Below are positions 3,390-63,999 of a DNA stretch of 64,000 nucleotides, in pieces; position 1 is the first letter of the stretch; every line of letters starts with the position of its first letter. The notes below the pieces were generated by a model. That model was given only the letters and a program-made list of their open reading frames with translations. It searched no databases and had not been told where the DNA came from. Made by a program: the position numbers and the translations under genes. Origin of the DNA: a virus; IMG/VR virus record IMGVR_UViG_3300017987_000006, positions 114,260-178,259 of that record; one strand, written 5' to 3'.

Positions 3390-3669
3390 GAAGGCCCTCT
3401 TTTTTTCCTTCGGCCGTGGCCGGTTGTTGGTTGAAAATTGTTGCTGCCACATCACTCTCAAGCAGATCGATGAACTTGGTCATCGCCTCCTGCGTCTCCT
3501 TGCTTGCTACTTCGTGCGCCGACATCTTGATCGCCCCGTATGGGGTGGACGTCTTCGTGTCCAGGTACTGTGCTGTCAGCTTGATCGTCACACCGATGCC
3601 CGTCCTGTTCAGCTCTGCGCTGACGATGGAGACAGCATCAAACCGAGGACTCCCTTCGATCTTCTTCAC
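3340..3669 (-). CDS. Hypothetical protein
   Basis: 109 aa ORF in operon, GTG start overlapping upstream stop. Confidence 0.6.
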   Translation of the reverse strand: MKKIEGSPRFDAVSIVSAELNRTGIGVTIKLTAQYLDTKTSTPYGAIKMSAHEVASKETQEAMTKFIDLLESDVAATIFNQQPATAEGKKEGLHEPTGLADEAEEDAQV

Positions 3670-4007
3670 TTCTTCTTTCCTTCCAGGTATTCACGCAGAT
3701 ACTTGTTCAGGTTTCGTGCGAGGAACTTGTGCGCTAGGTGCGCAGCACTCTCGTTGGCCACTTCAATCTCCGCTACGGACTGTCCACACGACAGCTTGAT
3801 GAAGCATGTCGATTCGATGGACATCCCCTTGTCTTCTCCGAGCCTCCAAGGTTTGACGCCCAGCGTGACACCGACTTCGGCCGGGCCGGGGGAGATGTCG
3901 AAGTGCTCCCAGTCCGTCTTCCGATCATCTAGGACAACCTCTCCGTTCTTCTTGACCGTTGTGTGCTGCTGCGCTGGTCCAAGTTGCCGCCGCTTGAACT
4001 TTCTCAT
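3666..4007 (-). CDS. Hypothetical protein
   Basis: ATGA overlap with upstream gene; phage-like codon usage. Confidence 0.6.
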   Translation of the reverse strand: MRKFKRRQLGPAQQHTTVKKNGEVVLDDRKTDWEHFDISPGPAEVGVTLGVKPWRLGEDKGMSIESTCFIKLSCGQSVAEIEVANESAAHLAHKFLARNLNKYLREYLEGKKK

Positions 4008-4468: not shown

Positions 4469-5232
4469 GTGAGCAGTCCTCCTTGCACTAGAAACATATC
4501 GCGCATTTTGTATCCTCGATCGGGCATGGGAGTGTCCCAGTATACCTGCCGAAGTTTGTCTAGCAGGTAGGCCGCGCGCCTCCACGCAACCAGGGCCTGG
4601 CCCCATACTCCTATCTTTCTCTTGTCCCCGCTCCGCGCGAGAAAAGCGGGGTGATACATCGACATCACCGGGTAGGTGACGTCGGTCGCCTTGCCGCGGA
4701 TAACGCAGTGCTGCACCTGTCCTTGGACGTTCCGCATCGTGACTGAGCGCTGACCCGTCACCTCGAGCACGGCGGGCTTACCCATCGCCACTACCAACAG
4801 TGGATCAATCTCGTACAGGACCTCCTCCCAGAACGGCCGACAAGCAGCCCGCTCCTTACTGGACGGGTCCCTGTTCTCTTCTCGCTTACGACCAGATCTC
4901 TCATCGGTGGAGATGGAGAACGGACGACACTGGACAATGTTCATCACGAACACGCTTCTGCGATCTATCTTCACGGCCTCCAGGTACTCATTGAGGATGT
5001 CTCCCGAAGGTCCTATGAAGGGAGCGCCTTCGAGATCTTCTTCCTCCCCCGGGCCGATGCCGATGATGACCATGTCCGCATCGACGTTTCCATCCGGCAT
5101 TACGATTCTTCCAGCAGTGCCGTCCGTTTTGAGTTTCTTTTGCTCTCGCAGCTCTCCAAGTCCGCACTTTGTACACCCGCGCCATTTCCTAAAAATGGAG
5201 AGCACCCTCTGCTCTCTTTCGGTTGGGCTCAT
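4465..5232 (-). CDS. Uracil-DNA glycosylase, family 4 (Fe-S)
   Basis: CTKCGL, GIGPGEEEDLEGAPFIGPSG, NIVQCRP, YHPA motifs. Confidence 0.9.
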   Translation of the reverse strand: MSPTEREQRVLSIFRKWRGCTKCGLGELREQKKLKTDGTAGRIVMPDGNVDADMVIIGIGPGEEEDLEGAPFIGPSGDILNEYLEAVKIDRRSVFVMNIVQCRPFSISTDERSGRKREENRDPSSKERAACRPFWEEVLYEIDPLLVVAMGKPAVLEVTGQRSVTMRNVQGQVQHCVIRGKATDVTYPVMSMYHPAFLARSGDKRKIGVWGQALVAWRRAAYLLDKLRQVYWDTPMPDRGYKMRDMFLVQGGLLT

Positions 5233-29041: not shown

Positions 29042-29059
29042 AACAATGGACCATTATTG

Positions 29060-30937
29060 ATGCTTGTCGACCTTGCCAAAAAACGCCGTATCGAGGCCAA
29101 CAGGATCGTCCCTGTGTCTTATGTGGCCCAGGTCGGGGCCGATGGTAAGACCTACTCTGAGCCGTACCTCGATTACGCTGACGGCCCAGATGGAGAATAC
29201 GGGGCCGGGGAAGAGGAGTACTACGACTTCGATGATGAGCCTCGTGACCCAACCGCAGAGGAGTTCGCGGCAGGTAACTTTATCTACAATGTGTCCCCGT
29301 CCGAGTTCACAGAGACGGCAATCAAGATCGCTACCAGCGGCAAGGCGTCTAACTTCTCCTTCACCGAGCGCCCCTACCTGGCCCGCATCTACAACACTAA
29401 CTCCCCGAGAACATTACTAAAATTCGCGCGACAGACTGAAAAGAGCACGACGCTCGGCAACAAAATGATCTGCTACGCCTGTTTGATCAACCACTTTCGG
29501 GCGCTCTATGTAGCGCCGTCGGCGGAGCAGGCCAAGACGTTTTCCAATGACCGTATCGCAGATGTGATCAATCTGTCTCCGTTAGTCAAGGCGTACACCA
29601 ACACATATCTGACCAACGCAGTCTTCCAGAAGAAGTTCATCAACTACTCCAACATCCGACTCCGTTACGCCTACTTAACGGCCGACCGTGTGAGAGGAAT
29701 CCCTGCGGACAAGATCGATATTGACGAGCTGCAGGACATCCTGGTCGACAACATTCCCGTCATCGAGGAGTGTGCATCGCACTCGGAGTGGAAGATCTTC
29801 ACCTATTCCGGGACGCCCAAGTCGCTTGACAACACCATCGAGCACTACTGGTCAAACTTCTCCACGCAGAACGAGTGGGTCGTTCCCTGTGATCGTCACG
29901 GTACGCCAAATAATCCTTCGTCGTGGCACTGGAATATTTTAGACGAGGACAACATCGGCAAGGATGGACTCGTCTGCGACAGGTGCCACGAGCCCATCGA
30001 CCCGAACCATCCGATGGCGCAGTGGGCCGCCATGCAGCCGATGACGGACGCCAACAAGGACAAGGTTACCTACGAGGGGTACCGCATTCCTCAGATCATG
30101 GTGCCGTGGATCTTGAACAAAAAGGACGGCTGGGCAAGCGTCCTGGAGAGACAGGAGCGGTACAGCCGGCAGAAGTTCTACAACGAGGTCCTAGGTATCA
30201 GCTATGATTCAGGAACACGTCCCATTACCAAGGCACAGCTCAAAGCGTGCTGTAGGCCGGAGATTAGACCTGGAGACTACGAGCACTTCAGGTCTGTCAC
30301 CGCGGGAACTGAGGTCTTCGCTGGATTGGATTGGGGTACGGGAGAGCAATCCTACACAGTGATCTCCCTTGGCGCATACATGGGAACTGGCAACTTTACG
30401 ATCTTTTGGATCCATCGCTTCACCGGAAAAGACCTGGAGCCTCCGGCACAGCTAGATCGTATCTGTACGATCTTAACCCAGTTCAATGTCAAGCTGTGTG
30501 GCTGTGACTACGGCGGCGGGTTTGATCGCAACGATCACCTCATCAGAGCCTTTGGCCCGCAGAAGGTGTTCAAGTTTCAATACAACAATAACCAAAAGAA
30601 GGGGAAGGTGTACTGGGAGGAACGCCTGCGAAGATTCGCTGTGCACCGCACAGAGGTGATGAGCGATGTATTCGGGGCGCTGGTAAGGAAGCAGATCGAC
30701 CTGCCGAACTGGGATGACTTCATAGAGCCGTACGGTCAGGACATCTTGAATATCTTCAGCGAGTACAATGAGACGACCAGGATGACCAAGTTCAACCACG
30801 CGCCGGGAACGACGGACGATTCGTTCCACTCGATCTTGTACTGCTTCCTCGCCTCTATGATCAGATTCCCGCGCCCAGACATTATGGCCGAGATGCAGGA
30901 CACAGGGGAAGACGACTATCCAAAGCGGAGGCGGTAG
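29060..30937 (+). CDS. Terminase large subunit (lambda GpA-like)
   Basis: RPYL..IY, ARQTEKST Walker A, IDIDELQD Walker B, SGTPKS, CxxH/CxxC, GLDWG RNase H-fold nuclease motif. Confidence 0.9.
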   Translation: MLVDLAKKRRIEANRIVPVSYVAQVGADGKTYSEPYLDYADGPDGEYGAGEEEYYDFDDEPRDPTAEEFAAGNFIYNVSPSEFTETAIKIATSGKASNFSFTERPYLARIYNTNSPRTLLKFARQTEKSTTLGNKMICYACLINHFRALYVAPSAEQAKTFSNDRIADVINLSPLVKAYTNTYLTNAVFQKKFINYSNIRLRYAYLTADRVRGIPADKIDIDELQDILVDNIPVIEECASHSEWKIFTYSGTPKSLDNTIEHYWSNFSTQNEWVVPCDRHGTPNNPSSWHWNILDEDNIGKDGLVCDRCHEPIDPNHPMAQWAAMQPMTDANKDKVTYEGYRIPQIMVPWILNKKDGWASVLERQERYSRQKFYNEVLGISYDSGTRPITKAQLKACCRPEIRPGDYEHFRSVTAGTEVFAGLDWGTGEQSYTVISLGAYMGTGNFTIFWIHRFTGKDLEPPAQLDRICTILTQFNVKLCGCDYGGGFDRNDHLIRAFGPQKVFKFQYNNNQKKGKVYWEERLRRFAVHRTEVMSDVFGALVRKQIDLPNWDDFIEPYGQDILNIFSEYNETTRMTKFNHAPGTTDDSFHSILYCFLASMIRFPRPDIMAEMQDTGEDDYPKRRR

Positions 30938-46895: not shown

Positions 46896-47643
46896 CACCG
46901 CTTACACTCCCAGCTGGGCGGAGAATCCCGTCCTGCAGCTGCGGAAGACGGTGCTCGGCTTCTTACAAGGTCTATTCGAAGAGGCTGAAGTTTCCTGCTT
47001 TCGCTGGCACGAGAGTTTGGAGGACACAGAAATCGTCATCACAGACGAGTTTCCGCTGAAGCTGGATGTCGTGGGTAAGCGCCCGGCCATCACGCTGGTC
47101 CGGGGCGCGATGTCGTGGAACAAGACATCCATCGGGGAGATGCTCTCCCTGAACATGGCTAACGATCAAAAGAAGCGGTCCGATTTAGTCAGCGGGACTA
47201 TCTCCATCAACTGCTGTGCCCGCGATGATCTGGAGAGCGAGTACATTGCGCTGATCGTCGCGCGGCATCTGTGGATATTGGGCCCACTGCTTCAAAAAGG
47301 CACGCCGATCCATGAGATCGGACGTGGGGTGCAACTCGGCTCGCCCAGTCCTGCCGGAGCGATCGTGGTGGGGGATACTGAGGGGGAGTGGATCAATACA
47401 CCCGTCACGACCCCTTATTTCATTCAGGAAACAAACTCCGTGCAGCCGCTAGGCCAGCAGCTGCTGCGGAGACTGTCGTTAAGACTTGGAGTTCGCGGAG
47501 GAGCCCAGGTTGGTAACACCCCCGTCAGATATCAGGCCAGGCAGACTGGTCTGCGACAGCCGACGATCAGGGGGAGACCTATTCGAAATGTCTCGTTCGA
47601 GCAAACGCTCGTGGTAACAGATGAGGAGAATCCAAATGGCTAA
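46864..47643 (+). CDS. Putative tail completion/terminator protein
   Basis: Directly before sheath; RPAITLVRG pattern. Confidence 0.5.
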   Translation: MSVASASVPPSTAYTPSWAENPVLQLRKTVLGFLQGLFEEAEVSCFRWHESLEDTEIVITDEFPLKLDVVGKRPAITLVRGAMSWNKTSIGEMLSLNMANDQKKRSDLVSGTISINCCARDDLESEYIALIVARHLWILGPLLQKGTPIHEIGRGVQLGSPSPAGAIVVGDTEGEWINTPVTTPYFIQETNSVQPLGQQLLRRLSLRLGVRGGAQVGNTPVRYQARQTGLRQPTIRGRPIRNVSFEQTLVVTDEENPNG

Positions 47644-50600
47644 CGAAGAACTCCTTCGCCCAGGAATGTCCGTAATCCAGCAGTTTCGGACGATCACCCC
47701 CACGATCGTTCAGCCGACGCTGGTTCCCTGTGTCGTGGGCCCGTGCTTCCAGGTCGTCGAGGCATTGGAGACCGACGCAACCGGCAACTCCGTGGTGAAC
47801 ACGGACGCCGTGCCTTCGGTTCCGCCCATCATCACCTCGATCTCGGCTGAGGACTACACCGGCCTGGACGGACTCACCCTGAAGGTCAGCGTGAACAACG
47901 GCCCCGAGCAGGAGGTCACCCTCTCCGACCCGACCGCGGCTGGTCTGACGGCAGATCAGGTCAAGAGCCAGATCTTGGCCACGAGCGGCATCAGCGGCTG
48001 GGCGGCATACACCGTGACCCGTGGCTCGAGCACCTACCTGCAGCTCCGCGGGAACAACTCCGGTGACGGTCAGTCTCTTCAGATCTTGGATGGCACGGCA
48101 AACGCCCAGCTGGGGCTGCCGGACTTCTTCGAGGCGACTGGTTTCTCGTCCTACGCGCAGGACAAGCGGTTCATCGCGCAAGACAACTTCCCGGACCCGC
48201 GGGACAACATGGACGAGCTCGACATCGATGAGGACTCGATCAGAGTCTTCATCAACACCGGCTCGGCGCTGCAGGAGGTCAAGAGGGACGAAACCTTTCT
48301 ACGCAACGGCTGGACCGCGTGGATCTTGGGCACGGCCATCTCGTTCCAGACTTCGAGCTTGAAGGACAAGGACCTCGAGGTAACGTTCGCGGTTGGTGGA
48401 ACCGAGCAAACCATCACCTTCGACGGCGACTACCAGGCTGTTGATGGAACGTTGGTCGTGCCGGCCGGCGTCTACGCCGACCCCGGCACCGACACCATCG
48501 ACATCCAGAAGAACAGCGATACGGCCGTGACCGTGACTTTCGCCAGCCCGGCGGACATCGATGCAGCGGTAACAGCGATCAACGCGGCGTGGGCAGCGAC
48601 CTATACCGGTGAGGACGTCTGCTACCGCGCCGACGCGGACGGATCGGCCAACCCAGCCGGCACCTACATTGCCTTCCAAGTTGGCGGCGCGACCGCGACC
48701 GGTGACTACGTGAAGGTCATCGAACCGGGCAGCGGCGACGCCTTCAGCGACATCGGCTTTACCTCCGCGCAAGGAGCGGTCGGTTCTTCGCTGGTCTACT
48801 TCATCAACACCACCTTGAGCTCTCCGACTGACTACCCGGCGGCGGTTGACGGCGGCAGCGATAAGCTGAAGCTATACTCCTACGACGGGTACATCAAGGT
48901 GGGTGATGGGGACGCCAACGCTACGCTCGGGCTGACCGATGACGAGGTGCAGTACGCGCTGGAGGGCGTGGATGATGGAGACGGGGACAGCACCTCACCG
49001 ATCGTCAGAATCCACAACGAGGACTTCACGCTCGATCCGACCAGTGCCTCGTTGACTGGGACCGGCGATCTGTCAGGCGACAACCAGGTCCACAAGCTGA
49101 CCTTCCAGCTCGCCATCGATGGCGAGCCGATGCAGGAGGTCGAGTTCAACGGCGGGCCGATCGTCCCGGCCAACCCCTACGCAGACCCCGGCACCGACAG
49201 CTTGGGCCTGATTGTGAACGGCACCCCGGTGGTGGTCACATTCGCCAGCCCGGCCGACATCGACGCTGCGGTGACTGCGATCAACACCGCCACCAGCCCC
49301 GTGGTCGTGGCCTACCGCTCTTTGAGCACGGGTGTAGCCGATGCAGCCGGAACCTACATCGCCTTCCAGGTGGGCGGCAGCACGGACGCTGGCGGTTCGA
49401 TCATCATCGACTACAGCGCCAGCACGGGCAACGCCTGGACGGATATCGGCTTTACCGGGACGTCTGACATCTACCAGACCCTCACCTCGGCCGAGATCGA
49501 GACCGCCATCGAGAACACGATGGGCACCGGGACGGCGGCCATCAGTTCTGACAACCTGGTGTTGAGCTCGGCCGAGACCGGGGTCGAGTCCAAGATCGAG
49601 ATCGGCCAGGGGACGGCCAACACCTTGCTGGGCTTCACCTCCGGCTACGTCACCAACGGCCGGGGGTTCAAGCCCAAGGCCGGGGACTACCTGTACGCCG
49701 ATGGCGAACTTCTGGGTATCATCGCTCAGGTCTCGCCAGGAGCGGTAGCTACGGACCTGCGGTTGGACAGAGAGCTGACCTACACCACACTGCTCAAGAA
49801 GAACTGGTACATCCAGGCCAAGAACATCGCAGATCCACAGCCTGCCGATCGCCCCACTCCGGACTTGGTCGTGGACCTGGCGGGTGACATCACGATCAAG
49901 CACGACATCCTCCGCGACACCCGTGGGGACGCTGTGGAGCTGGCAAGCGATCAGCTGATCGTGGCCTACGATGCGCTGCGGCTGGATGTTACACCCAAGG
50001 CTGATAACCCCGCGCTGCTGACCTTCGAGGGGACGGACGAGCTCGAGACGTCACTCGAGCCATTGAACACGGACAACCCCCTGGGCCTGGGTCTGTTCTT
50101 CGCGCTGCTGAATGCGCCAGGCGTGACGGTCAGCGGTATCGGTGTGAGTGCCACCAGCGCGGACTCGCCCAACGGAACACTAGCAGCCTACACCGAGGCG
50201 GCGACGTTCCTGGAGAGCCAGGAGGTCTACGCCATCGCTCCGCTGACGCACGATGGCGACATCCACTCGATGTGGCAGACCCACGTCAACAACATGTCCG
50301 ACCCGGACGCCCGCGGAGAACGCATCGTCGTGATCAACCCGGAGATGCCAGACCGAAACCTGGACACTCTGGTGGCCAGCGGGACGGACGCGGACAGCAC
50401 GGGCGTGACCAACGAGCTTGATACCAAGCTGTCTAACCTGGCCGCGCTGTTGCTCGCCGCCGGAGTCGACCCCACCGGGACCATCGAGGTGGACGATGGA
50501 GTCTACCTGGACATCGCCTCGGACTCCAGCAAGTACAGCATCTCAGCTGTGAGTGGGACCAAGATCACCATCCGGGTGACCTTCGCGCCTGGGGAAAACG

Positions 50601-51346
50601 ACGACAGCTACTACAGCTCGTCCAACCTTTCCTCCTCGCTGATCTCGGAGTCCTTCTCCATCAAGATCCGCGGCGCGGAGCTGCTGACCTCGGAGAACCT
50701 ACCGGATTACGCGGCCATTGCCTCGACCTACGCCGACCTGGGCACCGCCTACGGCGATCGACGAGTGTACATGACCGCTCCGGATCAGGCCGGAGCCACC
50801 ATCGATGGGCTCGAGCAGCTGATCGATGCGTTCTACGTGAACGCGGCCATCGCAGGCATGATCGGGCAGCAGCCTCCGCAGCAGGGATTCACCAACTTCC
50901 CGATCTCCGGGTTCACACGCATTGTAGGGTCGAACGACAAGTTCAGCGAGACCCAGATGAACGTGGGTGCGGGCGGCGGCACCTACTGGATCATCCAGGA
51001 GGTGGTCAACGGACCCCTGACGTGCCGTCACCAGTTGTCTACTGACACGAGCTCCATCGAGAAGCGGGAGCTGTCGATCACCAAGGTGGTGGACTACGTC
51101 GCGAAGTTCATGCGGGCAGGCCTGCGTAACTTCATCGGCAAGTTCAACATCACCCAGGGCTTCCTGGACACCCTATCGACCGTCATCCAGGGGCAGTTGA
51201 CCTTCTTGACGGAGAACGGAGTGATCATCGGTGGGGACCTGAACAACATCGTCCAGGACACCACTGAGCCTGACACGGTGCTGATCGATGTCACGTTGGA
51301 TGTCCCCTATCCGTGCAACTACATCAGGCTCGTGTTGACCATTTGA
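47636..51346 (+). CDS. Contractile tail sheath protein with large insertion domains
   Basis: ATG 47636 with GAGGAG; C-terminal sheath motifs TCRHQLSTD...RELSITKVVDYVAK, DVPYPCNYI; acidic. Confidence 0.85.
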   Translation: MANEELLRPGMSVIQQFRTITPTIVQPTLVPCVVGPCFQVVEALETDATGNSVVNTDAVPSVPPIITSISAEDYTGLDGLTLKVSVNNGPEQEVTLSDPTAAGLTADQVKSQILATSGISGWAAYTVTRGSSTYLQLRGNNSGDGQSLQILDGTANAQLGLPDFFEATGFSSYAQDKRFIAQDNFPDPRDNMDELDIDEDSIRVFINTGSALQEVKRDETFLRNGWTAWILGTAISFQTSSLKDKDLEVTFAVGGTEQTITFDGDYQAVDGTLVVPAGVYADPGTDTIDIQKNSDTAVTVTFASPADIDAAVTAINAAWAATYTGEDVCYRADADGSANPAGTYIAFQVGGATATGDYVKVIEPGSGDAFSDIGFTSAQGAVGSSLVYFINTTLSSPTDYPAAVDGGSDKLKLYSYDGYIKVGDGDANATLGLTDDEVQYALEGVDDGDGDSTSPIVRIHNEDFTLDPTSASLTGTGDLSGDNQVHKLTFQLAIDGEPMQEVEFNGGPIVPANPYADPGTDSLGLIVNGTPVVVTFASPADIDAAVTAINTATSPVVVAYRSLSTGVADAAGTYIAFQVGGSTDAGGSIIIDYSASTGNAWTDIGFTGTSDIYQTLTSAEIETAIENTMGTGTAAISSDNLVLSSAETGVESKIEIGQGTANTLLGFTSGYVTNGRGFKPKAGDYLYADGELLGIIAQVSPGAVATDLRLDRELTYTTLLKKNWYIQAKNIADPQPADRPTPDLVVDLAGDITIKHDILRDTRGDAVELASDQLIVAYDALRLDVTPKADNPALLTFEGTDELETSLEPLNTDNPLGLGLFFALLNAPGVTVSGIGVSATSADSPNGTLAAYTEAATFLESQEVYAIAPLTHDGDIHSMWQTHVNNMSDPDARGERIVVINPEMPDRNLDTLVASGTDADSTGVTNELDTKLSNLAALLLAAGVDPTGTIEVDDGVYLDIASDSSKYSISAVSGTKITIRVTFAPGENDDSYYSSSNLSSSLISESFSIKIRGAELLTSENLPDYAAIASTYADLGTAYGDRRVYMTAPDQAGATIDGLEQLIDAFYVNAAIAGMIGQQPPQQGFTNFPISGFTRIVGSNDKFSETQMNVGAGGGTYWIIQEVVNGPLTCRHQLSTDTSSIEKRELSITKVVDYVAKFMRAGLRNFIGKFNITQGFLDTLSTVIQGQLTFLTENGVIIGGDLNNIVQDTTEPDTVLIDVTLDVPYPCNYIRLVLTI

Positions 51347-55320: not shown

Positions 55321-55417
55321 GTAAACCTCCTGAATCCTGAGATTATCGATGATCAACTGGACGATCAACTATTTTTTGGTCAGCCGGAGGGCCAGGCCCC
55401 TATGTTCTGGGAGGCGG

Positions 55418-55520
55418 TTTTGAAAAAGTAGTAACTTTGAAAAAAATCCTGTGTCATATGTATATGTCCGACATATGTATATGTAGATTTAAAAAAAATT
55501 ATTCTTTTTTTCTTAATAGG
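55418..55520. repeat. AT-rich intergenic island with direct repeats
   Basis: CATATGTATATGT x2 (55455-55467, 55472-55484), TTTGAAAAA x2, A/T runs. Confidence 0.75.
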
Positions 55521-55572
55521 GGTTCCCAGACATATGGACCCCACCCCAAAAACGGGGTGGGGGGCATGATCG

Positions 55573-55797
55573 TTATTGATCTACCTCTATCCTTCTCAGG
55601 ACGTGGTAGATCGCATCGAGGTCTTTTCCATTGATCGGCCAGTCTAACTTCCCCAGGAACTCCGCGGCCCGTTCATCGGGTCTGACCTGCAGGGTGCGCT
55701 TCCCAGGTATTTTCAACAGCAGGGTTCCGTCACCCATGTCCTTTACCCAGGCCCCCAGGCGGCGTGCGTTCTGCATGAACTCCTTATTGATGCTCAT
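55573..55797 (-). CDS. Small hypothetical protein
   Basis: AGGAG RBS; CGGTATAAG at 55825-55833; 10-bp hairpin CCCCCACCCC/GGGGTGGGGG downstream. Confidence 0.65.
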   Translation of the reverse strand: MSINKEFMQNARRLGAWVKDMGDGTLLLKIPGKRTLQVRPDERAAEFLGKLDWPINGKDLDAIYHVLRRIEVDQ

Positions 55798-55919
55798 TTG
55801 ATCTCCTTTTTGGGTTGTACTTTTCTTATACCGATTTATGAGGAAATTCGGATCAGATCGTGGTATAGGATCTCTGCTTTCGTTGGGGAATTACCCCCGA
55901 CACAACATAGGAGGAAGAA

Positions 55920-56120
55920 GTGGCCAAGAAGAAGCAGAAAGAGATCCCAGCACTGGTGCGCGTCAGCAGCATGAAGGAGTACATCAAGGGGGCGGCGGAC
56001 GTGAACGTGTCCGGAGAGCTCGTCGAGGCGGTGAACGGGAAGCTGGCAGAGGTGCTTGCGGATGCCGTAGATCGGTGCCTTGGAAACAACCGCAAGACCG
56101 TTCGTCCGGTGGACCTGTAG
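55920..56120 (+). CDS. Bacterial-type histone-fold protein (66 aa)
   Basis: LVRVSSMKEYIK / VNVS / GELVEAVNGKLAEVLADAVDRC / RKTVRPVDL; AGGAGG RBS before GTG. Confidence 0.85.
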   Translation: MAKKKQKEIPALVRVSSMKEYIKGAADVNVSGELVEAVNGKLAEVLADAVDRCLGNNRKTVRPVDL

Positions 56121-56161
56121 GGCCCTTGCTAACCGGGGTCTGCCCGGGGTACACTCGGTCC

Positions 56162-56464
56162 ATGGATTTAGTAACCATCACCTCTATGCTCGATGAGCTG
56201 GAGAAGATTGCTATCTCTGGCCAGGTGCCCCGGGCACCCAAAGCGCCCAAGACTTCAGCACCACCTCCCCCGCCTGCTGCCCGCATGGCTCCCACGAAGA
56301 TGCCAAACCCGCCGTCGTTTGCTCCTCCAGCTCTTCCGCACTCCGGCGTTCCGGGGCAGCGGCATAGCGCGCTGGCGACGCAGAACACCCTCGGGAAACG
56401 TCTTCCACCAATCGATCCACGCGCGGCCGCGACGATGGTGAGGTATAAGGCCCCGGTTTACTAG
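56162..56464 (+). CDS. Small DELEKI-motif, Pro-rich protein
   Basis: MDLVTITSMLDELEKIA. Confidence 0.6.
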   Translation: MDLVTITSMLDELEKIAISGQVPRAPKAPKTSAPPPPPAARMAPTKMPNPPSFAPPALPHSGVPGQRHSALATQNTLGKRLPPIDPRAAATMVRYKAPVY

Positions 56465-56479
56465 GCCCAGGAGAACAAC

Positions 56480-57067
56480 ATGAAACCGCTATTCATCGTC
56501 CTGGAAGGGACAGATGGCGCTGGGAGCACGACCGCGTCGAAGCTCCTGGTCCAGACTTTGAACGACAAAGGCATCGAGTCCGTGTGGACAAAGGAGCCCT
56601 CAGACGGAACGATCGGAAGACACATCAGGAGAATCTTGAAGGGCGAGGAGATCGCAGATGAGGCGTCGATGTTTCCCATGTTCATGGCAGACCGCCACGA
56701 CCACATCGGAAATTTCATCCGCCCGGAGCTGGAACAGGGCAACACGGTGGTGTGTGATCGGTATGCCTACAGCACGTGGGTTTACCAGCAGGACAACTAC
56801 GGGATGGATGTGATTGAATTGATGCAGCGTCGCTGCCTACCGCCAAACTACACCTTCGTTCTGGAGTGTCCGGTGGAGGAGTGCATGAGGCGCATGGAGG
56901 GAAGGGACGTGATCGAGCGTTACGAGATCGAGGAGAAGCAACGGGAGTATGCCAAGCGCTACAAGCGTGTTCCTCCCATCGGATCTGAGCAGATCATTCA
57001 CCTGGACAGCTACGACTTGAACCCAGCTCAAATCGTGGACAAGATCCGCCGGGAGATCGGCTTGTGA
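56480..57067 (+). CDS. tmk: Thymidylate kinase
   Basis: VLEGTDGAGSTT P-loop, TKEP, FMADR, CDRYAYS motifs. Confidence 0.9.
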   Translation: MKPLFIVLEGTDGAGSTTASKLLVQTLNDKGIESVWTKEPSDGTIGRHIRRILKGEEIADEASMFPMFMADRHDHIGNFIRPELEQGNTVVCDRYAYSTWVYQQDNYGMDVIELMQRRCLPPNYTFVLECPVEECMRRMEGRDVIERYEIEEKQREYAKRYKRVPPIGSEQIIHLDSYDLNPAQIVDKIRREIGL

Positions 57068-59663: not shown

Positions 59664-60239
59664 ATGTGGTTGGCCGTTGTGCTGAAGCTGTTCATGCCCG
59701 GGTCGGAGCAGTACGCCGCGGACATTGAAAAACAGGCCAAACGTTACAAGTTTGATCCACTCCTCGTTGCGGCTGTGGTCTTCAAAGAGTCGGGATTCAA
59801 GAAGGACTCCTGTTACAAGGGATCGCACGGGTTGATGCAAATCCAACTCCGCCCAAGATCATGTGAGGGATCGATGGCCCGGGCCATAGAGTTGGGTTTG
59901 TATCAACCGTCCAAGAACATCGAGCGTGGTGTGCGGATGATGGCGACGTGGCGCAGGTGGTGGCGCAAGTACCACAAGGACGATGGGTACCACTGGTTGC
60001 TACACTACAACCGCGGATTTGGATCGTGTCCTGATGGGAAGAAGTACTGTCCGACTGTTGAGAGAAGGCCCACTTCCGCGGGAAGCGGGTATGCAGACAG
60101 GGTGTTGAAAATATATCGCAGGCTAAAGAAGATCAGGGTCAGGCCCTCGCCGACCCGAAGGCCGGCGAGGGATTTGGGAGGCGTTGTGGACGCTACTTCT
60201 TCGCTTTCAGTTTCTCGGCGATGTCGGGGTTCTGCTTGA
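59664..60239 (+). CDS. Lytic transglycosylase (SLT domain)
   Basis: LVAAVVFKESGF (catalytic Glu), GLMQI, NIERG, HYNRG. Confidence 0.85.
   Translation: MWLAVVLKLFMPGSEQYAADIEKQAKRYKFDPLLVAAVVFKESGFKKDSCYKGSHGLMQIQLRPRSCEGSMARAIELGLYQPSKNIERGVRMMATWRRWWRKYHKDDGYHWLLHYNRGFGSCPDGKKYCPTVERRPTSAGSGYADRVLKIYRRLKKIRVRPSPTRRPARDLGGVVDATSSLSVSRRCRGSA
60144..60171 (-). terminator. c(UUCG)g hairpin downstream of minus-strand gene 60193-60684
   Basis: CCCTCGCCGGCC-TTCG-GGTCGGCGAGGG on minus strand. Confidence 0.55.
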
Positions 60240-61638: not shown

Positions 61639-62075
61639 AGAAGGATCGTGTCGCGTTGGCGCAGATCACTGATGAGGTGGAGGAGGAGCTCAAGAGGGAA
61701 GAGTTGGTGTGTGTAGAACGTCCACCGACGCGCCGGTGTGTGTCCTACAACAGGTATCCTCGACCGGAAACACATACGGTATGTATGGTGTGCCACGCTC
61801 CATGCTGCACGAAGATGATTGTGGTGTTGGAGCGTAGTGAGGAGGAAAAGTATCCGGTGGAGTATGTTCGCGACTACAAGAGGCCGCGAGCCCGCGCAAG
61901 GCTAAAGAGGAGATCTGACGGTTCCTGCATCTATTTCAACAAGAAAACTGCTCGGTGTGCGCGTTATGGGTCTCGGCCGCTGGCCTGCAGGCAGTTCTTT
62001 TGCGGCCGCGGTGTCCCTTTTGAGGATAGGGTCTGGTTGGACTTGGGGGGAGAACCGGAGGTGGGGGGTGGGTGA
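61605..62075 (+). CDS. YkgJ-family cysteine-cluster (Zn/Fe-S) protein
   Basis: CMVCHAPCC...CIYF...C..Y..RPLACRQFFC. Confidence 0.75.
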   Translation: MPRAARDHVQLEKDRVALAQITDEVEEELKREELVCVERPPTRRCVSYNRYPRPETHTVCMVCHAPCCTKMIVVLERSEEEKYPVEYVRDYKRPRARARLKRRSDGSCIYFNKKTARCARYGSRPLACRQFFCGRGVPFEDRVWLDLGGEPEVGGG

Positions 62076-63999
62076 TAAAGCAGAGACGATGGTCGCCGAG
62101 GTGAAGAGCATACGGTACGAGCGGGGGACGTTTCGTATTGTGAGTGTCGAGACTGAATGTATGCAGCGGGAGACGGTACTCGGTGATATCGAGGGTGTGG
62201 CGGTGGACATGGTATACGAGTTTTCTGGGCAGTGGAAAAAGCACCAGGTATACGGGAGGCAGTTTCGCGCCGTGACCGCGGTACCTGTTCGACCTACCAG
62301 CTCCTTCGGCGTACTAGATTTTTTGGAGCAGTTGCCTCAAATAGGTCCGGAGAGGTCGCTTTTGGTGATGGAGCACTTCGACAACGACTACAAAGAAGTG
62401 TTCCGGGTCATAGAAGAAGAACCAGAGAAACTCGTTGTGATCAAGGGGATTACCGCCGAGCGCGCAGCGGAGATAAAGATCCAGTTCGAAGTGCTGAAGA
62501 AGTTCAAGGACGACATCATTCTGTTGAAGGGCCTGGGGGTTACTGACCGCCAATGCCGCATCATCATTGAGCATGCGAAATTTCTTGGTAGAACCATCGA
62601 AGAGATCTTGGAGGAAGACCCGTACCAATTTGTCCGCGTACGTGGTCTGAGCTTCGGGGCGGCAGATAAGATCGCCCTGGGTTACGGGATAGACTCTGAC
62701 GATCCCAGGAGAGTGGACGCCGTGTTAGAACACGTTCTCGAGTGTGCGACAACGTCCGGACACTGCTTTTTGGATTACATTCTCCTGCGCTCGGAAACGT
62801 TGGACTACGGCATTGGTGGTGAGACAGCAGAAGAGGGGATAGAACGTCTTTGGGGTGCTGGTCGGCTGGTAGTGGAGCAGGATCACGTGTACCTTGGCAG
62901 GTTGTATAGGAGTGAGGTCGGAGTCAGTGAGGCCCTTCATCGGCTGTCCTATCAACATGACCTTGATGTGGACGAGGTCATGGAGGAGCGTGTAGAAGGT
63001 TGGGCGATCGAGCTCCACAAAGATCAACTCACTGCGGTCAGGAATGCACTGGTTAACAATGTGTCAATTATCACCGGAGGTCCTGGTACTGGGAAGACCA
63101 CGTGCTTGCGGAAGATTGTATCCGCGTTGGGCGGTATAGGCATCCGCAACAACATGGTGTTCTGCTGCGCTCCTACGGGAAAAGCAGCCATCCGAATGAA
63201 ACAGCAGTCCGGGATAGACGCTAAGACGATTCACAGGTTGCTGGAGGTAGACGCAGAGACGGGCTCGTTCGTGAAGAACGCTGAAAATCCTTTGTATTGC
63301 AGCGCGGTCATTGTGGATGAGGCATCCATGGTAGACATTGGGTTGATGGCGTCTCTCCTGAGGGCGATGAGTAGCAACACGCGGTTGATCTTGATCGGAG
63401 ACGTAGACCAGCTTCCGGCCGTCGGCCCAGGAAACGTTTTGAACGATTTGATCTCTTCCGGGAAGATTGAAACAACGCGACTGACAAAGGTGTTTAGGCA
63501 GTCCGAGCATTCTTGGATCTCCGAGAACGCCTCCGCGATCAAGAACGGAGAAATGCCAAACCTGGACGATGATGACAGCGAGGACTTCTTCTTCAAGGAA
63601 TGTAACTCGGCCGCGGATATACCGGACGTCATGGTGGATTTGGTCGGCGAGCTGCGGTCTTCTGGGGTTCTGAAGGACGACATTCAGGTGTTGTGTCCGC
63701 AGAAAAAGAAAGTGATCGGCACAGAGAACTTGAACGAGTTGTTTCAGGAGACGTTTAATCCTCATGAGGACGATAAGCCGTGGTGGTACGCGGCGCAGGG
63801 GCGTATCTACTTGAGGGACAGAGTCATCCACACCATCAACAACTATCAGCTGATGGTGATGAATGGGGAGATTGGGTCTGTGCGGCTGAAGGATGGGGGA
63901 CTGGACCTTGGGTACCTACAGGTGGACTACGGAGACAGGAACGTTGATTATGATGTGCTCAACCTTTACGAACTAAGGTTGGCCTACGCCTTGACGGTG
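62068..63999 (+). CDS. recD2: RecD2-like SF1B helicase; runs off the window end
   Basis: Not in the ORF track; manual translation: GQWKKHQVYGRQF, DPYQF..GLSFGAADKIA, TGGPGTGKTT, PTGKAA, VDEASM, GDVDQLP, VFRQ, LAYALTV. Confidence 0.9.
   Translation, partial: MGDKAETMVAEVKSIRYERGTFRIVSVETECMQRETVLGDIEGVAVDMVYEFSGQWKKHQVYGRQFRAVTAVPVRPTSSFGVLDFLEQLPQIGPERSLLVMEHFDNDYKEVFRVIEEEPEKLVVIKGITAERAAEIKIQFEVLKKFKDDIILLKGLGVTDRQCRIIIEHAKFLGRTIEEILEEDPYQFVRVRGLSFGAADKIALGYGIDSDDPRRVDAVLEHVLECATTSGHCFLDYILLRSETLDYGIGGETAEEGIERLWGAGRLVVEQDHVYLGRLYRSEVGVSEALHRLSYQHDLDVDEVMEERVEGWAIELHKDQLTAVRNALVNNVSIITGGPGTGKTTCLRKIVSALGGIGIRNNMVFCCAPTGKAAIRMKQQSGIDAKTIHRLLEVDAETGSFVKNAENPLYCSAVIVDEASMVDIGLMASLLRAMSSNTRLILIGDVDQLPAVGPGNVLNDLISSGKIETTRLTKVFRQSEHSWISENASAIKNGEMPNLDDDDSEDFFFKECNSAADIPDVMVDLVGELRSSGVLKDDIQVLCPQKKKVIGTENLNELFQETFNPHEDDKPWWYAAQGRIYLRDRVIHTINNYQLMVMNGEIGSVRLKDGGLDLGYLQVDYGDRNVDYDVLNLYELRLAYALTV

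Follow-up and report, generated by a model that had tools for sequence, protein, structure and literature searches.

The 66-residue protein described here, which is encoded by an uncultured tailed phage, is quite probably a face-to-face (FtF) α3-truncated histone of the kind represented by HLp of Leptospira perolatii and HTkC of Thermococcus kodakarensis, and it most likely serves as a phage-made nucleoid protein inside the infected cell. The phage is represented by an IMG/VR record of 178,259 bp with a completeness rating of 100%, and the window, i.e. the whole stretch of DNA that was analysed, comprises the final 64 kb of this record. The first-pass annotation had assigned the gene to a phage, and the genes for the large terminase (TerL), the major head protein and a sheath-like protein in the same 178-kb record confirm this (Table 1). 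The head and tail module occupies about 23–51 kb of the window and the histone gene is located outside this module. Genes for tRNAs were not found within the 64-kb window. The "direct terminal repeat" of the record measures just 123 bp; rather than physical ends, it most likely reflects the overlap left by assembling a circular or permuted genome. The idea that the histone gene is expressed early because it is located near the genome end was therefore dropped.

Table 1 Features of the phage DNA around the histone gene; positions refer to the window unless residues are given
Feature	Position	Strand	Remarks
Large terminase (TerL) gene	29057–30937		
Major head protein gene	39147–40274		
Gene with tail-sheath match	47621–51346		
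Promoter-like sites	53731, 54670, 54788, 55833, 55861, 56441, 58830, 60750, others		
74-aa gene	55573–55797	-	Divergent from the histone gene
Promoter-like core GGTATAAG	55825–55832	-	Divergent; for the 74-aa gene
Promoter-like core GGTATAGG	55862–55869	+	About 50 nt before the histone start codon; exact match
5'-UTR stem-loop GGGG-AATTA-CCCCC	55885–55898	+	Predicted
Shine-Dalgarno sequence AGGAGGA	55909–55915	+	4 nt before the GTG; read directly
Histone gene	55920–56120	+	66 aa, GTG start, 7.1 kDa, pI 9.2
Histone, Lys-rich tail	residues 1–10		
Histone, α1	residues 15–25		
Histone, L1	residues 26–31		
Histone, α2	residues 32–55		
Histone, L2	residues 56–62		
Histone, truncated α3	residues 63–65		
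Pro-rich 100-aa gene	56162–56464	+	After the histone gene; N-terminus with SMLDELEKIA
Next GGTATAAG	56442–56449		Before the thymidylate kinase gene
Thymidylate kinase (Tmk) gene	56480–57067		After the 100-aa gene; followed by a DUF6884-like gene

The open reading frame and its GTG start codon are present exactly as annotated in the first pass, and the same holds for the ribosome-binding site and for the basic N-terminal tail with its Lys-rich MAKKKQKE stretch. The start codon can be regarded as correct because it aligns with the ATG of the histone genes in three related phage contigs, which start with ATG-GCA-AAG and are likewise preceded by a ribosome-binding site (AGGAGG or GAGGAG) where the window has AGGAGGA. 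The tail MAKKKQKEIP contains five lysines in ten residues. The entire protein has 12 Lys and Arg and 9 Asp and Glu residues, and its net charge is only +3.

The histone fold that had been proposed from the sequence was recovered by structure prediction. With 71 relatives as alignment, AlphaFold2 yielded a histone fold with a mean pLDDT of 87.8, in which α2 comprises 24 and α3 three residues, and the helices and loops annotated beforehand agree with this model. The α3-truncated histones are characterised by a histone fold with an α3 of three to four residues, a shorter α2 and the motif RxTxxxxD, and the phage protein shows all of these features, the motif being R58-K-T60-V-R-P-V-D65. Thus, we are confident that the protein, as modelled, adopts an α3-truncated histone fold. 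The comparison of the model with the PDB by Foldseek, which had been suggested with HMfB and Bd0055 in mind, placed HLp (9qt1/9qt0) at the top rank (39% identity, rmsd 0.8–1.0 Å, TM by target 0.91), followed by HBb (27% identity, TM 0.80, rmsd 0.8) and HTkC (23% identity). The top nine hits were all prokaryotic mini-histones with a probability of 1.00, below which the nucleosomal (eukaryotic core) histones and NF-Y were ranked. The sequence searches against the PDB gave the same order. Using phmmer, HLp was matched with an E-value of 2.7e-6 over residues 8–65 and HBb/Bd0055 with an E-value of 0.09. With the family profile, E-values of 1.6e-21 (79 bits) were obtained for HLp and of about 6e-16 (62 bits) for HBb and HTkC, the exact value for HBb being 5.6e-16. 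The first-pass annotation had described a close resemblance to the histones of both Bdellovibrio and Leptospira; HLp from Leptospira is indeed the best match, whereas the likeness to Bd0055 turned out to be the weaker one.

When 1.8 billion representative proteins were searched exhaustively, 110 matches were obtained at E≤1e-3, most of which are 56–80 residues long and have the same layout, whereas a word-indexed homologue search returned only three proteins. Two of the matches, P0019 (2559 aa) and P0111 (1085 aa), were rejected as histones, being repeat-containing secreted adhesins. About 20 further matches of 114–162 aa (P0008, P0010, P0013, P0017, P0018 and others) carry two FtF-like folds per chain and may be called pseudo-dimers. 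A protein from an Actinomycetota MAG (L038) is also among these double-fold relatives, and the two of them that were tested both match the Pfam family DUF1931. The Pfam model PF00808 (CBFD_NFYB_HMF) scored 13.2 bits with the phage protein (E 0.11, residues 34–66 only), which is below the gathering cut-off of 21.4; this model covers the subfamily poorly. Moreover, no PHROGs family matched the protein and the viral structures of BFVD contained nothing at E≤0.001, the best entries above this value being viral histone-fold proteins of 99–139 aa and giant-virus histones.

The α3-truncated histones have been split into groups including FtF tetramers and "bacterial dimers" such as HBb, and in the latter the Arg and Asn that are conserved at the dimer–dimer interface of FtF histones are missing (Schwab et al.; PMC11390915). 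For HLp, R49, N53 and R55 were identified as tetramer residues, R55 and D62 as a clamp, and R59, a main contact, K17 and K21 as being among the residues that touch DNA (Hu et al. 2025; PMC12701072). In HTkC, R45, the equivalent of HLp R49, pairs with the carboxylate at the C-terminus of the facing dimer, and the R45A exchange leads to dimers (10.64898/2025.12.06.692711). The phmmer alignment revealed that the phage residues R52, N56, R58, R62 and D65 correspond to R49, N53, R55, R59 and D62 of HLp, respectively, and that K19 and K23 occupy the positions of K17 and K21; R58 and D65 are thus the counterpart of the R55–D62 clamp. Among the 71 relatives, R52 is conserved in 97%, N56 in 96% and R58 in 99%, and a Lys or Arg is present at position 19 in 99% and at position 62 in 85%. 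The R-x-T and R...D clamp that had been annotated corresponds to R58-K-T60...D65, of which T60 and D65 are invariant (100%) and R58 occurs in 70 of the 71 relatives. The chain ends exactly one residue past D65 in 69 of these 71 proteins, and with L66 in the phage protein.

The AlphaFold oligomer check that had been proposed was performed with four copies, and an ipSAE of 0.89 was reached in three runs, while the best of three controls scored 0.00. The calibration of the mark applied refers to two copies and not to four: 20 of 30 proteins whose solved structures are pairs attain it, as does 1 of 23 whose solved structures are single chains. The four-copy score comes mainly from the dimer interface. 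Between runs, at least 86% of the contacts were the same, and the partner pLDDT was at least 88. Besides the handshake, the model contains a second contact formed by residues 51–52, 55–56, 58 and 64–65, which, in the prediction, is the FtF interface. However, the good score may reflect memory of the solved tetramers of HLp (9QT0) and HTkC (9F2C), and the model shows likeness rather than binding. Histones of the FtF group are recognised by the interface Arg and Asn, a closed tetramer and a chain end after α3, all of which were found in the phage protein, the tetramer by prediction only. Wrapping or bridging of DNA is a further property of this group, and the contact residues K19, K23, T60 and R62 that would serve it are retained. 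The group of bacterial dimers is defined by the absence of this Arg and Asn and by a dimer as the largest confident oligomer, neither of which applies to the phage protein. On all tests, it is FtF/HLp-like and not Bd0055-like. Since exactly one histone copy is present in each of three phage genomes, the oligomer must be a homo-oligomer.

Several histones are suitable for comparison. HLp (PDB 9QT0/9QT1/9QT2; PMC12701072) belongs to the same length class (63 vs 66 aa) and shares the α3-truncated fold as well as the tetramer, clamp and DNA-contact residues listed above. However, HLp is a cell-encoded chromosomal protein alongside SMC, whereas the protein described here is phage-encoded and known from sequence and models. 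Moreover, the DNA-contacting K15 of HLp is replaced by serine (S17), the L1 loop (DVNVSG) is one residue longer and the N-terminal tail is richer in Lys than that of HLp. HTkC (PDB 9F2C; PMC11390915; 10.64898/2025.12.06.692711) forms the same type of toroidal tetramer, its R45 is equivalent to R52 of the phage protein, and its chain ends right after α3, which enables the carboxylate to pair with Arg. Unlike the phage protein, HTkC is archaeal, thermostable, a major chromosomal protein and devoid of a Lys-rich tail. HBb/Bd0055 of Bdellovibrio bacteriovorus (PDB 8CMP, 8FVX, 9EZZ; PMC11317129, PMC10627809) has the α3-truncated fold and the RKT...D motif in common with the phage protein but forms only dimers and lacks the FtF Arg and Asn.

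Histones of phages have also been described before. Schwab et al. (2024) described "phage histones" of the A0A2E7QIQ9 type, corresponding to the VTTH class in Liu et al.; these are likewise phage-borne α3 histone folds, but they have a long C-terminal tetramerising helix and lack RxTxxxD (PMC11390915), whereas the present protein ends at α3 without a C-terminal extension and has the motif. It therefore does not belong to this class. Liu et al. (hLife 2025; PMC13681535) mined IMG/VR with the profiles of Schwab et al. and found, by prediction only, FtF histone-fold proteins in Caudoviricetes that carry Lys-rich N-terminal tails of 5–40 residues. The window protein fits this description in every respect, i.e. 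origin from Caudoviricetes, FtF-like fold, predicted tetramer and Lys-rich tail. Phage FtF histones were thus already known by prediction, and the rarity in phages that had been claimed for such proteins was overstated. Neither the link to Tmk nor the conserved promoter-like element and the leader hairpin, all of which are reported below, are described by Liu et al. The additions made here are the residue-by-residue assignment to the FtF group and not to that of HBb, the clade-wide linkage of histone and Tmk, and the promoter-like element together with the leader hairpin.

The GGTATAGG core upstream of the histone gene is a variant of an element, T[CT]GGTATAAG, that recurs in this phage. Three related phage contigs (L007, L011 and L005) share the block GATC..GGTATA[AG]GA in the same place, about 50 nt upstream of the start codon, and it is therefore more than a chance occurrence. 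The genome contains 18 copies of GGTATA[AG]G, about 10 of which are located 27–66 nt before a ribosome-binding site with a start codon, and these well-placed copies precede small genes or the thymidylate kinase gene. For T[CT]GGTATAAG, about 15 good sites per 178 kb were detected, mostly before small divergent genes and the thymidylate kinase gene; they are almost absent from the head and tail module. The element has no clear −35 partner, and a scan with the σ70 consensus revealed no promoter before the histone gene. By PWM, the site of the histone gene ranks eighth, and eight of the better sites cluster at 53.7–60.8 kb of the window. The promoter variant annotated in the first pass is thus supported as a real phage-specific promoter-like element, and its sequence and placement suggest that GGTATAGG functions as a promoter. 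The GGTATAAG core of the divergent 74-aa gene is arranged back to back with that of the histone gene, 30 bp apart on the opposite strand, and the histone gene is the first of a rightward transcription unit originating in this divergent intergenic region of 122 bp. A leader hairpin was predicted at the same place in four of four phage leaders, the stems of the relatives being GGGC/GCCC or CGGGG/CCCCG. No terminator was predicted after the histone gene, i.e. between it and the 100-aa gene, and the two genes are probably co-transcribed. Another conspicuous element, 400 bp upstream of the histone gene, is an AT-rich island (55410–55565) with a GC content of 30% at 55400–55499 vs 57% in the genome. 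This island holds a near-perfect palindrome (CATATGTATATGTC / GACATATGTATATG, 55455–55483) and repeated TTTGAAAAA tracts, and the palindrome is followed by a GC-rich hairpin (CCCCACCCC/GGGGTGGGG, 55536–55565). This region might serve as an origin of replication, in regulation or as a bidirectional terminator.

The order of histone gene, one to three small genes and Tmk gene was found in the window and in the related contigs L004, L007/L008 (84 kb), L011, L095 and L097, whose histones are 42–56% identical to that of the window. Four of them (L004, L007, L011 and L097) possess a gene of 100–118 aa after the histone gene, the product of which is only 19–23% identical to that of the 100-aa gene in the window. 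The latter begins with MDLVTITSMLDELEKIA... (ELEK leader) and its remainder is Pro-rich and basic, while the positional counterparts in the related phages have a weak version of the leader, TTTWELHY.APR, and acidic C-termini. Two other relatives, P0115 (in the cluster of P0015, the latter being 43% identical) and P0034 (42%), are encoded among phage-like small genes and HNH endonucleases. A related IMG/VR phage of 176.9 kb, whose TerL and head protein are 53% and 65% identical, respectively, carries a single, more diverged histone gene (36%) adjoining that of a DinG-like helicase. Further genes of the window encode an SLT lytic transglycosylase (59664–60239) and a RecD2/YrrC-type helicase that runs off the window end (61957–63999, +). 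In the related contig L095 (1639–1854, −), a gene with a match to Pfam Acb5 (anti-CBASS) is located 1.6 kb upstream of that for the histone, and L007 and L008 contain a dCMP deaminase gene with an intein (Pfam Intein_splicing and dCMP_cyt_deam_1; L007 16428–17657, L008 10765–11994).

In 185,579 species genomes that were scanned with a pattern, 176 cellular relatives were confirmed. None of the best 80 of these 176 proteins is more than 47% identical; they derive from Krumholzibacteriota, Fibrobacterota, Bdellovibrionota, Myxococcota, Gemmatimonadota, Aenigmatarchaeota and Iainarchaeota. A contig of a Kofleriaceae MAG (L017, about 3479–3920) carries two tandem, near-identical FtF histone genes whose products have Lys-rich tails and short C-terminal extensions. 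A tree of 122 family members, which is based on 68 columns and has only two starred branches, paired the window protein with L003 and placed it among phage-context and metagenomic proteins, where it is separate from all named cellular groups. Because this poorly resolved tree ties the phage clade to no cellular group, we make no claim as to a donor or host, and the host phyla suggested in the first pass are neither supported nor contradicted. Cultured phages give no clue to the host either, since a tblastn search of 50,697 deposited phage genomes detected no histone homologue at E≤0.01 and the best deposited relative of TerL, that of Salmonella phage Arash, is only 29% identical. Another phage, of 108.9 kb (L006; IMGVR_UViG_3300037755_000497), encodes an FtF histone (5001–5189) that groups with histones of Halobacteriovorax. 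No TerL or head-protein match to the phage of the window was found, and the two phages are thus unrelated, which suggests that the L006 histone is a separate, host-derived acquisition. It is thus probable that FtF histones entered phages on more than one occasion.

The possibility that the open reading frame arose by chance or was called in the wrong frame is practically negligible. It is short, starts with GTG and is overlapped by two longer open reading frames in other frames (55838–56464, +; 55853–56095, −). However, these have neither homology nor dN/dS support of the kind found for the histone gene, and the homologous representative proteins, the confident fold and the conserved ribosome-binding site and start position already refute a chance frame. 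The dN/dS values of 0.23–0.83 against the phage orthologues, with dS near saturation, are also below 1 and indicate, as far as sequence comparison goes, a gene that evolves fast and yet is constrained. If the gene is accepted, its product could be a dimer like Bd0055/HBb that bends DNA or coats it end-on and forms no DNA-wrapping ring. HBb is the next-best solved relative by both structure and profile, and the truncated fold and the RKT...D motif are common to both groups. We consider this improbable, because HBb has Ser and Asp at the positions of R52 and N56, the two residues that are missing in bacterial dimers (PMC11390915). Furthermore, HLp is matched 18 bits better by the profile and at the higher identity, and the confident dimer–dimer contact of the four-copy model uses exactly the FtF residues.

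It is very improbable, too, that the protein has a histone fold without binding DNA and acts as a protein–protein adaptor, as proposed for DUF1931 or TAF-like folds. The depositors of the HLp structures labelled this protein "DUF1931 domain-containing", the double-fold relatives match that family, and histones of the DUF1931 category lack DNA-binding residues (Schwab et al.; PMC11390915). Nevertheless, the phage protein retains DNA-contact positions of HLp as K19, T60 and R62, which hardly vary across the family, the tail is rich in Lys, and HLp itself binds and wraps DNA (PMC12701072). It appears unlikely as well that the histone is packaged into the virion, where it would neutralise charge or condense the DNA in the head and then be injected together with the genome as a first shield. 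Giant-virus histones are virion components, the phage histone is small and basic, and the gene just downstream of it carries the SMLDELEKIA leader. However, the histone itself lacks a leader of this type, which is seen on candidate capsid-cargo proteins, its gene lies apart from the head and tail genes, and a ring wrapping 60 bp would be hard to reconcile with DNA at capsid density. The absence of the ELEK leader does not exclude packaging through DNA binding. Since the leader is absent and the promoter-like element is shared with Tmk and small non-structural genes, an intracellular role is most likely, and the histone is less likely a component of the virion.

The FtF nucleoid protein that we favour could act as follows. 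Transcription would start from the phage-specific promoter that is common to small non-structural genes and the thymidylate kinase gene; the timing of expression is judged from this sharing alone. As the homology to HLp and HTkC suggests, a histone "handshake" dimer would form from two chains, and two dimers would close face to face to give a small ring. The ring would be held together by R52, N56 and R58 of one dimer, which contact the C-terminal residues 64–66 of the other including the free carboxylate. DNA would be bound around the rim without sequence specificity, through K19 and K23 of α1, the L1/L2 bridge (G32 and T60), R62 and the Lys-rich tail. As in the solved relatives, about 60 bp could be wrapped per tetramer or two duplexes could be bridged. 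The genomic context suggests that the protein coats or compacts the replicating phage DNA in the infected cell, and possibly also the DNA of the host. The role in compacting or protecting DNA that had been put forward in the first pass is plausible; shielding of DNA from host nucleases, organisation of the substrates for replication or packaging, and silencing of the host may be considered.

A more far-reaching idea, which we regard as tentative and rather doubtful, is that the phage relies on a "chromatin" strategy with the histone at its centre. The phage, which carries its own large RNA polymerase, would express the protein from the phage-specific promoter shortly after entry, and the tetramers would then wrap the phage genome during replication or compact the host nucleoid excessively. 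The DNA would be hidden from restriction enzymes, CRISPR nucleases and nucleoid proteins of the host and would still be read by the phage enzymes. If true, the protein coat would be an alternative to base modification or to a phage nucleus, and the conserved linkage to thymidylate kinase would mark a module for DNA synthesis and DNA coating. Histones of tailed phages are a very recent and purely computational observation. The gene described here is a clean candidate for bench work because it is a single gene of 66 residues in a complete genome of 178 kb, its orthologues occur across a clade of large uncultured phages with a recurring gene order, and the solved relatives HLp and HTkC predict that the point change R52A would break the tetramer. 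The knowledge of the family as such is unchanged, and the value of the finding is that it provides a well-documented test case for the chromatinisation of DNA by phages.
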